Assembly: GCA_964016885.1 (NCBI GenBank) | Contig: OZ024744.1 | Span: 71,672,001 to 71,736,000, forward strand | Direction of reading: 5' to 3' | Source: Eledone cirrhosa | Lineage: Eukaryota | DNA length: 64,000 bases | Translations under genes and position numbers: made by a program | In this document: positions 11,194-12,700 of the stretch, piece after piece | Numbering within the stretch: the first letter of the stretch is position 1 | Layout: every line of letters starts with the position of its first letter | The notes under the pieces: generated by a model | Databases searched by the model: none | Told to the model about the DNA's origin: nothing | The model's input: only the letters and a program-made list of their open reading frames with translations

Positions 11194-12165
11194 AAATGGA
11201 AAAAATGAAACGAAATTTCATTTCTCACTCTTAGTACGGCTGTTACTTAAATATAAGTATGTATACGTACATACATATATGTATACAGAGGTACAGTAGT
11301 ACTTATATATATACATACATGCACACATATATATATGTACGTATTGATTTACCGAACATTTATTATAATGCTCGGTTTCTTTGTAAACAAACATCCTTAA
11401 TTAAGCCGTACAGTGTTTAGCAACCATCGTTGCCCTTTTGTTCAACACTGACAAAGGAACGCTGTACAAGTTTCAAGCTTATTAGCTATCGTCAGCACGG
11501 TATACCTTCCTGCCAGATGATTGAAAGTATATACTTTACTTATGCATATTAACGGCTGAGCAGCCTAATTTGCATATCGAGTGAGTTAATCGGCCGGCGC
11601 ACCGAAAACGATAAATGGAAAAAATGAAGCGAAATTTCATTTCTCACTCTTAGTACGGCTGTTACTTAAATATAAGTATGTATACGTACATACATATATG
11701 TATACAGAGGTACAGTAGTACTTATATATATACATACATGCACACATATATATATGTACGTATTGATTTACCGAACATTTATTATAATGCTCGGTTTCTT
11801 TGTAAACAAACATCCTTAATTAAGCCGTACAGTGTTTAGCAACCATCGTTGCCCTTTTGTTCAACACTGACAAAGGAACGCTGTACAAGTTTCAAGCTTA
11901 TTAGCTATCGTCAGCACGGTATACCTTCCTGCCAGATGATTGAAAGTATATACTTTACTTATGCATATTAACGGCTGAGCAGCCTAATTTGCATATCGAG
12001 TGAGTTAATCGGCCGGCGCACCGAAAACGATAAATGGAAAAAATGAAGCGAAATTTCATTTCTCACTCTTAGTACGGCTGTTACTTAAATATAAGTATGT
12101 ATACGTACATAGATATATGTATACAGACGTACAGTAGTATGTATATATATATACATACATGCACA
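11194..12165 (-). mobile_element. Head-to-tail array (about 2.3 units) of the 419-bp non-coding HHR unit, family C (retrozyme candidate)
   Basis: AAATGGAAAAAATGAA recurs at 11194, 11613 and 12032 (period 419). One HHR per unit, no ORF, flanked by (TA)n and (CA)n. Confidence 0.85.
11460..11500 (-). ncRNA. Minimal hammerhead ribozyme, family C (second copy 11879-11919)
   Basis: Minus strand CCGTG-CTGACGA-t-AGCT aata AGCT-t-GAAAC-TT-GTA-CAGCG. Other copies have the palindromic GAAACTAGTA. Confidence 0.8.
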
Positions 12166-12297
12166 CATACACACACACACACACACACACACATACACAC
12201 ACACACACACACACACACACATATATATATATATATATGTGTGTGTGTGTGTGTGTGTGTGTGTGTGTGTGTGTGTGTGTGTGTGTGTGTATATATA

Positions 12298-12700
12298 TCG
12301 TTTTCGGTGCGCCCGGCCGATTAACTCACTCGATATGCAAATTAGGCTTCTCAGCCGTTAATATGCATAAGGAAAGTATATACTTTCAGACGTTCAAAAT
12401 CATCTGGCAGGAAGGTATACGGTGCTGGCGATAGCTAATAAGCTTGAAACTAATACATCGTTCCTTTGTCAGTGTTGAACAAAAGGGCAACGATGGTTGC
12501 TAAACACTGTACGGCTTAATTCGGGATGTTTGTTTACAAACAACCCGAGCATTATAATAAATGTTCGGTAAACCCATACTTACATATATATATATATATA
12601 TATATATATATATATATATATATATATATGCATGTATGTATATATATATACATACTACTGTACATCTGTATACATATATGTATGTACGTATACACACTTA
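12298..12700 (+). mobile_element. Family C unit, opposite orientation, HHR at 12420-12460 with lesions
   Basis: Starts TCGTTTTCGG immediately after (TA)n and is the reverse complement of the 419-bp unit. Confidence 0.85.

Follow-up and report, generated by a model that had tools for sequence, protein, structure and literature searches.

A retrozyme candidate with Penelope-like insertion ends: a 419-nt hammerhead repeat family in a 64-kb window of Eledone cirrhosa

The window analysed here, a stretch of 64,000 nucleotides from Eledone cirrhosa, is AT-rich and contains many microsatellites and retroelement remnants. Among its repeats is a dispersed family of 419-nt units (family C) that carry a hammerhead ribozyme motif. 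When the readings considered below are combined, it is quite probable that a closed, non-coding unit was copied in the manner of Penelope-like elements (PLEs). Among these readings we favour, with some reserve, a non-coding unit of the retrozyme type that PLE enzymes copied into (TA)n tracts, probably from an RNA longer than one unit or from a circular RNA. The two nearly identical full units of the array, A1 and A2, would then stem from a later DNA duplication or a mis-join.

The ribozyme sense of the array corresponds to the minus strand, and unit positions 1 and 419 lie at 11610 and 11192 in A1. The period of 419 proposed in the initial annotation was borne out by Tandem Repeats Finder, which reported 2.3 copies at 11192-12169. 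A1 and A2 differ by a single base at 11210 (99.8% identity), and identity between separate copies is 83-94%. Pieces of the family were present at all five places named before (11.2, 12.3, 14.5, 16.5 and 27.0 kb, with 14.5-15.4 kb counted as one), and together they amount to ∼2,740 bases or 4.3% of the 64-kb window (Table 1). With its 419 nt and a GC content of 35.3%, the unit lies within the range of non-LTR retrozymes (150-450 bp, GC <50%). The longest stop-free frame in the doubled unit has 61 codons, in agreement with the earlier statement that no ORF is present. ARAGORN found no tRNA at 11-17 kb, and Rfam gave no match in the window at gathering score.

Table 1. Family C copies and associated features in the window
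Feature	Position	Strand	Remarks
Unit A1, full 419 nt	11192..11610	-	3' end passes into (TA)n
59-nt optional 3' tail, unit 361-419	11192..11250	-	on the minus arms; missing from plus arms B and Cp2
A1 type I hammerhead motif	11446..11516	-	core 11495-11489; predicted cut between 11465 and 11464
Unit A2, full, mosaic	11611..12029	-	damaged hammerhead as in A1, at 11865-11935
Partial unit A3, unit 282-419	12030..12169	-	5'-truncated upstream member of the original partial tandem; without hammerhead
(TA)n tract at A1 3' end	11160..11194	.	likely target
(CA)n(TA)n(TG)n(TA)n spacer	12162..12298	.	between the 5' ends of two oppositely oriented arms
Copy B, inverted arm, unit 1-360, tail-less	12299..12703	+	ends in (TA)n; hammerhead core at 12425
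Copy Cm, unit 187-419 with tail	14475..14715	-	minus arm of the second complex locus
Copy Cp1, unit ~138-419	14727..15076	+	starts inside the hammerhead; head-to-tail with Cp2
Copy Cp2, unit 1-360, tail-less	15077..15448	+	ends in (TA)n; hammerhead core at 15200
Copy D, 5'-truncated, unit 295-419	16470..16594	-	3' end in (TA)n
Copy E, 5'-truncated, unit 160-419	26986..27241	+	TA tracts on both flanks

A loose hammerhead descriptor matched 16 sites in the window, four of which lie in family C (A1, A2, B and Cp2). Ten shuffles of the window yielded 0-4 matches each, and 3000 dinucleotide shuffles each of A1, B and Cp2 yielded 3, 3 and 6 matches. Since these rates are low, the motif is above chance. 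The presence of a hammerhead in each unit, as assumed previously, thus applies to A1, A2, B and Cp2; A3 has none, and Cp1, the unit upstream of the 15076 junction, has lost the 5' half and retains the 3' part of the motif only. A 28-nt hammerhead pattern had no match in collections of metagenome, viral and prokaryote sequences, which is unsurprising for a repeat of animal origin.

The state of the motif across the family was read from public data. Four of 16 listed runs (X1, X4, X6 and X14) were aligned to window positions 11340-11725, spanning the A2/A1 junction. The family is very abundant in reads: in organism A it was found in 9,163 contigs of X1 and in 67,416 of 12.47 million RAD reads of X14, and organisms B and D had 11 and 10 contigs with the family. 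Summed contig depth was discarded as an unreliable measure of copy number and taken only as "very abundant". At position 11468, the majority letter restores the palindrome ACUAGU. It accounts for 1,132,978 of 1,134,565 depth in X1 (99.9%), for 11,194 of 11,480 (98%) and 7,612 of 7,665 (99%) in the X14 read sets, and for all depth in X4 and X6. At 11499, the majority letter (G; 99% in X1) restores a stem I pair. Among 40 of 80 variants listed, the free position N7 was the only core position that varied. The stem I alleles at 11498/11462 had summed shares of 0.60+0.38 in X1 and of 0.57+0.45 and 0.06+0.92 in the X14 sets, and the same sums were off in the thin runs (1.54 in X4, 0.88 in X6). The sums close to 1 fit a U.G/G.U flip as predicted, with the alleles unphased and the flip counting as one inherited event. 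Further variants in distal helix I (11454 and 11502-11509) would preserve pairing (A-U to G.U, and to U.G), again unphased. A diverged subfamily was also seen, in which 9,364 X14 reads have a different but homologous segment at window positions 11406-11436.

In the majority motif, helix I is 6 bp long, the internal loop reads UCCU:GUAU and loop 2 reads UAAUAA; helix II has four positions with U.U at its base, and helix III consists of a single A-U pair capped by CUAG, which forms the palindrome. The cut triplet is GUA, and the predicted cut lies after unit position 146. Judged by these elements, the family-majority hammerhead is a classical metazoan type I hammerhead and differs from the minimal PLE type, in which helix II is long. 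In a nearest-neighbour model, the ACUAGU self-duplex forms all 6 pairs at -4.8 kcal/mol. When the three majority letters were put in, a forced double hammerhead cost 10.6 kcal/mol and two single folds 15.5 kcal/mol. The double fold is thus predicted to be favoured by ∼5 kcal/mol, and dimer cutting is plausible for intact members. The majority hammerhead fold itself costs ∼10 kcal/mol in this model, where the predicted ground state differs, and local folds of the motif were no better than shuffles (z -0.7 to -1.1). Fold stability of the whole unit was considered as a sign of a circular form (z -7.1 linear, -5.9 circular), but z was -2.5 for unit 1-265. This argument was rejected because much of the stability stems from the self-complementary TA/TG part.

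At the loci in the window, none of the four complete hammerheads is intact. In A1 and A2, helix III reads ACUUGU (change at 11468), with a self-duplex at +0.3 kcal/mol and 4 of 6 pairs. Stem I of both units is CCGTG/CAGCG with 4 of 6 pairs, owing to damage at 11499 and a mismatch at 11498/11462. For the A2-A1 RNA, the forced double hammerhead cost 25.7 kcal/mol and two single folds 25.5 kcal/mol, leaving no gain for the dimer. Copy B has the core CUGGCGA and helix III ACUAAU, and in Cp2 helix III is an intact ACUAGU next to the core UUGACGA. Changes at A6 and C3 of the hammerhead cripple cutting. The stem I variants CGGTG/CATCG at 12420 and CGTTG/CAGCG at 15195 retain pairing, just as had been stated. 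Two ACUAGU stems had been proposed to allow dimer cleavage; they exist in the read-majority hammerhead and are absent from the array, where A1 and A2 both have ACUUGU. Because both full units are without the palindrome and without two stem I pairs, the array at 11.2-12.0 kb probably cannot cut in the way proposed. In a recent study, retrozyme loci were called active when two consecutive units have complete hammerheads (Li, Clavereau & Pollet 2026, bioRxiv 10.64898/2026.07.22.740005, main points), and by this definition no locus in the window counts as active. The retrozyme reading therefore holds at the level of the family, through ACUAGU, the dimer fold and a 419-to-1 junction outside the window, and fails at the array locus.

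The array itself could be dissected site by site. At six sites (unit 295, 297, 308, 309, 321 and 337) A2 equals A1 and differs from A3. At site 401, the sole difference between A1 and A2, A2 has the letter of A3, and A1 agrees with the four other copies covering this site. At site 414, A1, A2 and A3 share a letter that is not found in the four other covering copies. For the sole A1/A2 difference to hit an A3-diagnostic site by chance, the probability is 7/419. A single informative site carries the mosaic argument, and at 295 and 297, both in a TA/TG tract, the differences may stem from slips in the alignment. From this pattern, A2 is likely a mosaic of A1 and A3 that arose by exchange at the DNA level or by a mis-join and not as part of a rolling-circle multimer. 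The simplest history would be that A3 and one full unit were inserted, that ∼5% divergence followed, and that unequal exchange within unit 338-400 then made A2. The same pattern would result if an assembler had gone through the repeat twice. The caveat raised at the outset, that the first pair may be a recent duplication or an assembly artefact, is supported by the mosaic.

Head-to-tail junctions are located at 11611, 12030 and 15077. The last of these had been expected at about 15075 and was found at 15076/15077, with a breakpoint identical to that at 12029/12030; the copies joined at 12030 and 15077 are 5% and 7% apart. These two junctions bear on the possibility that the whole family is a minisatellite made at the DNA level or an assembly artefact, produced by unequal exchange or mis-joins with no RNA step. 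The near-identity of A1 and A2 and the mosaic nature of A2 are what unequal exchange or a double assembler pass gives, and such events account for A2 alone. They do not explain the two junctions between diverged copies, the dispersed copies with fixed 3' and variable 5' ends, or the conservation of the hammerhead throughout the family. A DNA-only origin is hence very improbable and, for the family, largely refuted.

The junction was also found in reads. Among 24 contig pieces listed, two bridge the 419-to-1 junction: X1 record 8 (11535-11653) and X4 record 16 (11548-11671). Both differ from the window copy, and the runs come from two differently labelled organisms. In X14, plus-mate depth over the junction was 2027, 2002, 1596 and 1315, without a step. 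Depth in X1 reached its minimum at the junction (305,622, with 1.2-1.8 million in bins close by), and in 50 contigs of this run the sequence passes from the unit into (TA)n at 11611. These exits and the low depth indicate that many copies end there. No fixed foreign sequence was found upstream of position 1 among the 17 listed of ∼500 loose ends. A tblastn search with ten window ORFs and 17 homologues had no match at 10.5-13.5, 14.0-17.0 and 26.8-27.45 kb, and in these three family regions no ORF with RT and GIY-YIG domains was continuous with the unit. Since position 419 is followed directly by position 1 and the copies tested have no coding sequence beside them, the sequence data indicate that the unit is closed on itself in most copies. 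An apparent third 3' end at unit 398, represented by 27,673 loose ends in X14 (11631-11633), coincides with an AATT site in a RAD library and was rejected. These ends are probably ligation chimeras, because RAD molecules end at other AATT sites too.

Closure of the unit also bears on a further explanation, in which the unit would serve as the pseudo-LTR (pLTR) of a coding PLE that is present in the window as truncated ends only. All insertion marks are PLE-like and most copies are 5'-truncated, as this would require. A coding form of low copy number may exist beyond the 17 loose ends listed and the 64-kb window, and Xenopus retrozymes were placed as sisters to pLTRs (bioRxiv 10.64898/2026.07.22.740005, in the part cited here). 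However, 419 meets 1 directly, where an ORF would be expected, both at the two old junctions and in contigs from X1 and X4. The listed loose ends have no fixed sequence before position 1, no protein remnant lies beside any copy tested, and the classical hammerhead is unlike the minimal type with long helix II in the pLTR of a coding element. We regard this explanation as improbable.

The ends of the copies were compared with those of known elements. The initial annotation had described the unit as having defined ends; this was not confirmed, as the 5' ends vary and the 3' ends occupy two sites. Free 3' ends are located at unit 419 (A1, Cm, D and E) or 360 (B and Cp2), 59 nt apart, and each lies on TAT or TATAT running on into (TA)n. 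The 5' ends are at unit 1 (B only, a free start), ∼138, 160, 187, 282 and 295, and none of these six is at the predicted cut site. Since the ends lie in (TA)n tracts, a target-site duplication, which exceeds 4 bp in non-LTR retrozymes that have one, is not readable. Each of the two complex loci has a tail-less plus arm and, facing away from it, a minus arm that bears the 59-nt tail, so that 5' truncation, a partial tandem, an inverted arm, a one-ended tail and a microsatellite target occur together. Five grouping sites place A1 and B against Cp1 and Cp2, and none supports either other grouping. This 5:0:0 pattern is consistent with one event per inverted pair, and a shared subfamily could also explain it. 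A later insertion as the origin of the short ends at unit 360 was rejected, as no plus-strand remnant of 361-419 follows B or Cp2 in the window. At the second complex locus, the inversion junction (14699-14745) lies inside the hammerhead and has a 19-bp duplication, and the start of the Cp1 plus arm falls at the palindrome, 5-9 nt upstream of where the cut is predicted.

Craig et al. (PMC8557442, sections cited) describe PLE insertions as 5'-truncated, partly tandem and biased to (TA)n, with an inverted copy alongside and a tail of 30-40 bp that is often present at one end only; they also describe non-autonomous forms in head-to-tail order. The tail was tied to two start sites of the RT (Frangieh et al., PMC11167929, sections cited). 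By analogy, the insertion ends of family C likely point to PLE enzymes.

Two ORF-bearing elements in the window served as internal controls and show the same PLE-type end pattern as family C. The first (35591-37527) is an inverted pair in which only one arm has a tail, of ∼54 nt; it contains remnants of GIY-YIG-like coding sequence and a hammerhead whose helix II is long. Hammerheads with a long helix II form a second family in the window, at 9568 (+), 35850 (-), 37274 (+) and 38661 (-), and are situated in a terminal repeat (pLTR) downstream of GIY-YIG-like remnants at 9.1-9.8 and 35.6-37.5 kb. The second element (38850-41416, extending to ∼41680) has an inverted arm and a tail of ∼104 nt on one arm only; further pieces of it lie at 1874-3938, 5487-5599 and 14376-14479. 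The loose descriptor detected no hammerhead in its terminal region. Its ORF at 39518 has matches to 17 proteins, 534-797 residues long; in Pfam, this ORF and six of the 17 homologues tested remained without a name. Weak similarity to the GIY-YIG ORFs of the window (E 0.002-0.02 among 10 proteins) and the architecture of the element hint at a PLE. Pfam searches with 12 window ORFs revealed RT or GIY-YIG domains in five and a mariner helix-turn-helix in one. Family C and the PLEs of the 64-kb window share no sequence clearly above shuffle level, the 3' end included.

Other repeats were noted in the same surroundings. The ∼104-nt tail recurs alone before (TA)n, once directly beside copy Cm. Further hammerhead-like motifs belong to other repeat families (24178 (+), 25355 (+), 25871 (+), 18345 (-) and 13760 (+)). 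A repeat family at 24.4-26.0 and 41.7-42.8 kb has tandem and inverted pieces adjoining (TA)n. Another repeat forms an inverted pair (15478-15731 / 16182-16432, 92% alike), each member of which abuts a (TA)n tract common to a family C end, with a more diverged copy at 5636-5828. From the TA tract ending copy E extends a mariner-like element (27258-28133) with inverted ends of ∼100-120 bp and Pfam HTH_48 in the ORF at 27447. An inverted repeat of 467 bp (16720-17186 / 17403-17869, 97% identical) ends at a (TA)n tract. A SINE-like dispersed repeat of ∼200 bp is present as a head-to-tail pair at 61284-61683 and as copies at 1440, 3513, 6220, 49702 and 59180.

In the favoured mechanism, an intact master locus with two or more units would be transcribed. 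Two hammerheads would pair via ACUAGU and cut after unit position 146, and the resulting 419-nt monomer would be circularised by a host ligase. A PLE endonuclease would nick (TA)n, and the 3' end would prime on the RNA at UAU(AU) of unit 356-360 or 417-419. The RT would then copy round past the hammerhead and the 419/1 junction and drop off at random, giving partial tandems of 1.3 to 1.5 units (A3+A, 557 nt; Cp1+Cp2, ∼640 nt) and truncated pieces. Second-strand priming at the other site would produce the inverted arm without the tail. Inserted copies would decay, and unequal exchange between A3 and A1, with a crossover in unit 338-400, would add A2.

The same PLE-copied, non-autonomous element could also have used an uncut, linear read-through RNA as template, with the hammerhead as a passenger or acting in another step. 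Indeed, all long copies run through the hammerhead uninterrupted, no 5' end coincides with the cut site, and the original insertions of at most ∼1.5 units could be templated by a linear dimer RNA. An anole PLE used unprocessed RNA, and hammerhead mutants were still inserted in vitro (PMC11167929, experiments cited); of nine Xenopus dimers only one was cut in vitro (bioRxiv 10.64898/2026.07.22.740005, in the part cited). Against an idle hammerhead, the full classical motif, its tertiary-contact bases and the dimer palindrome are kept at ∼99% in reads, and in coral, mussel and axolotl circles arose in abundance from motifs of this kind (PMC7229834, as cited). We consider a linear template unlikely, but a serious candidate.

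Beyond the favoured mechanism, we tentatively put forward a more specific picture, in which family C is a very high-copy retrozyme whose hammerhead is of the newt type and depends on dimers. Each step of the Penelope reaction would be recorded in its copies, as in the neighbouring coding PLEs, through the pair of priming sites with TA microhomology, the inverted arm and the tail on one side. If true, this picture would provide evidence, directly from genomic copies, for the copying of ribozyme-made RNA circles by PLE enzymes; the link between PLEs and retrozymes has so far been argued from co-occurrence and pLTR homology. It would also mean that longer arrays arise afterwards, at the DNA level. 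Both the enzyme that moves animal retrozymes and the origin of their arrays, from an RNA circle or by DNA exchange, have so far been argued indirectly. Retrozymes of this class are known already, a mollusc among their hosts, which makes the element itself unsurprising; its value is that of a test case. What is added is the insertion signature and the dissection of an array into an old 1.3-unit insertion and a DNA-level duplication. As a warning, counts of tandem hammerheads as "active retrozymes" may include duplicated dead copies.

No cephalopod family of such retrozymes was described in the literature searched, with subscription papers, Repbase and Dfam outside the scope of the search, and the family may already be catalogued. 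The main text of a cephalopod repeat survey, as far as available, does not mention hammerheads or ribozymes (PMC8967140). Animal non-LTR retrozymes are tandem repeats of 150-450 bp with classical type I hammerheads, and their circles were shown for coral, mussel and axolotl (Cervera & de la Pena 2020, PMC7229834, sections cited). They have been argued to be non-autonomous PLE derivatives (bioRxiv 10.64898/2026.07.22.740005, sections cited). Family C shares with them the size of the non-coding unit (350-390 bp in a mussel family described in PMC7229834, 419 nt here), a GC content of 35%, a single type I hammerhead of the classical form in each unit, a head-to-tail arrangement of copies, a strongly self-paired predicted fold, a very high copy number and PLEs in the same genome. 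In contrast to retrozymes, it mostly consists of truncated pieces and 1.3- to 1.5-unit partial tandems in (TA)n, with inverted arms and a one-sided tail; such ends are not described for retrozymes in the sections cited of PMC7229834 or bioRxiv 10.64898/2026.07.22.740005. Circles are demonstrated for some retrozymes and predicted for family C. The plant-type LTR retrozyme, which combines LTRs and a type III hammerhead with PBS/PPT and a 4-bp target-site duplication, does not fit, as the topology here is type I and no LTR pair surrounds an internal region.

The hammerhead has close counterparts among classical motifs. That of S. mansoni has UCCA:GUAC and loop 2 CAAAUA (PMC2632901, motif as given there), compared with UCCU:GUAU and UAAUAA here. 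In axolotl, HHR_Amex1 has a one-pair helix III with a palindromic tetraloop and HHR_Amex2 a U.U at the base of helix II, each as in family C, and the axolotl motifs cut far better as dimers (PMC7229834, sections cited). Newt satellite 2 and the axolotl repeats are predicted to require a dimer for cutting, as is family C, which unites both weak features. The minimal PLE hammerhead, in comparison, has a long helix II (PMC4209133, motif as given there).

The closest likeness in insertion structure is to PLEs and their pLTRs, and to non-autonomous Chlamys elements such as MRC1, which have partial tandems, an inverted 5'-truncated arm and a tail at one end as family C does (PMC8557442, PMC4209133 and PMC11167929, sections cited). 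Two 3' start sites, microsatellite targets and non-autonomous head-to-tail forms are likewise shared with the PLEs described there. Family C differs from PLEs in having no ORF, a classical instead of a minimal hammerhead and a tail of 59 nt instead of 30-40. Finally, the anole PLE primed without homology in vitro (PMC11167929, experiments cited), whereas both 3' ends of family C have TAT microhomology.
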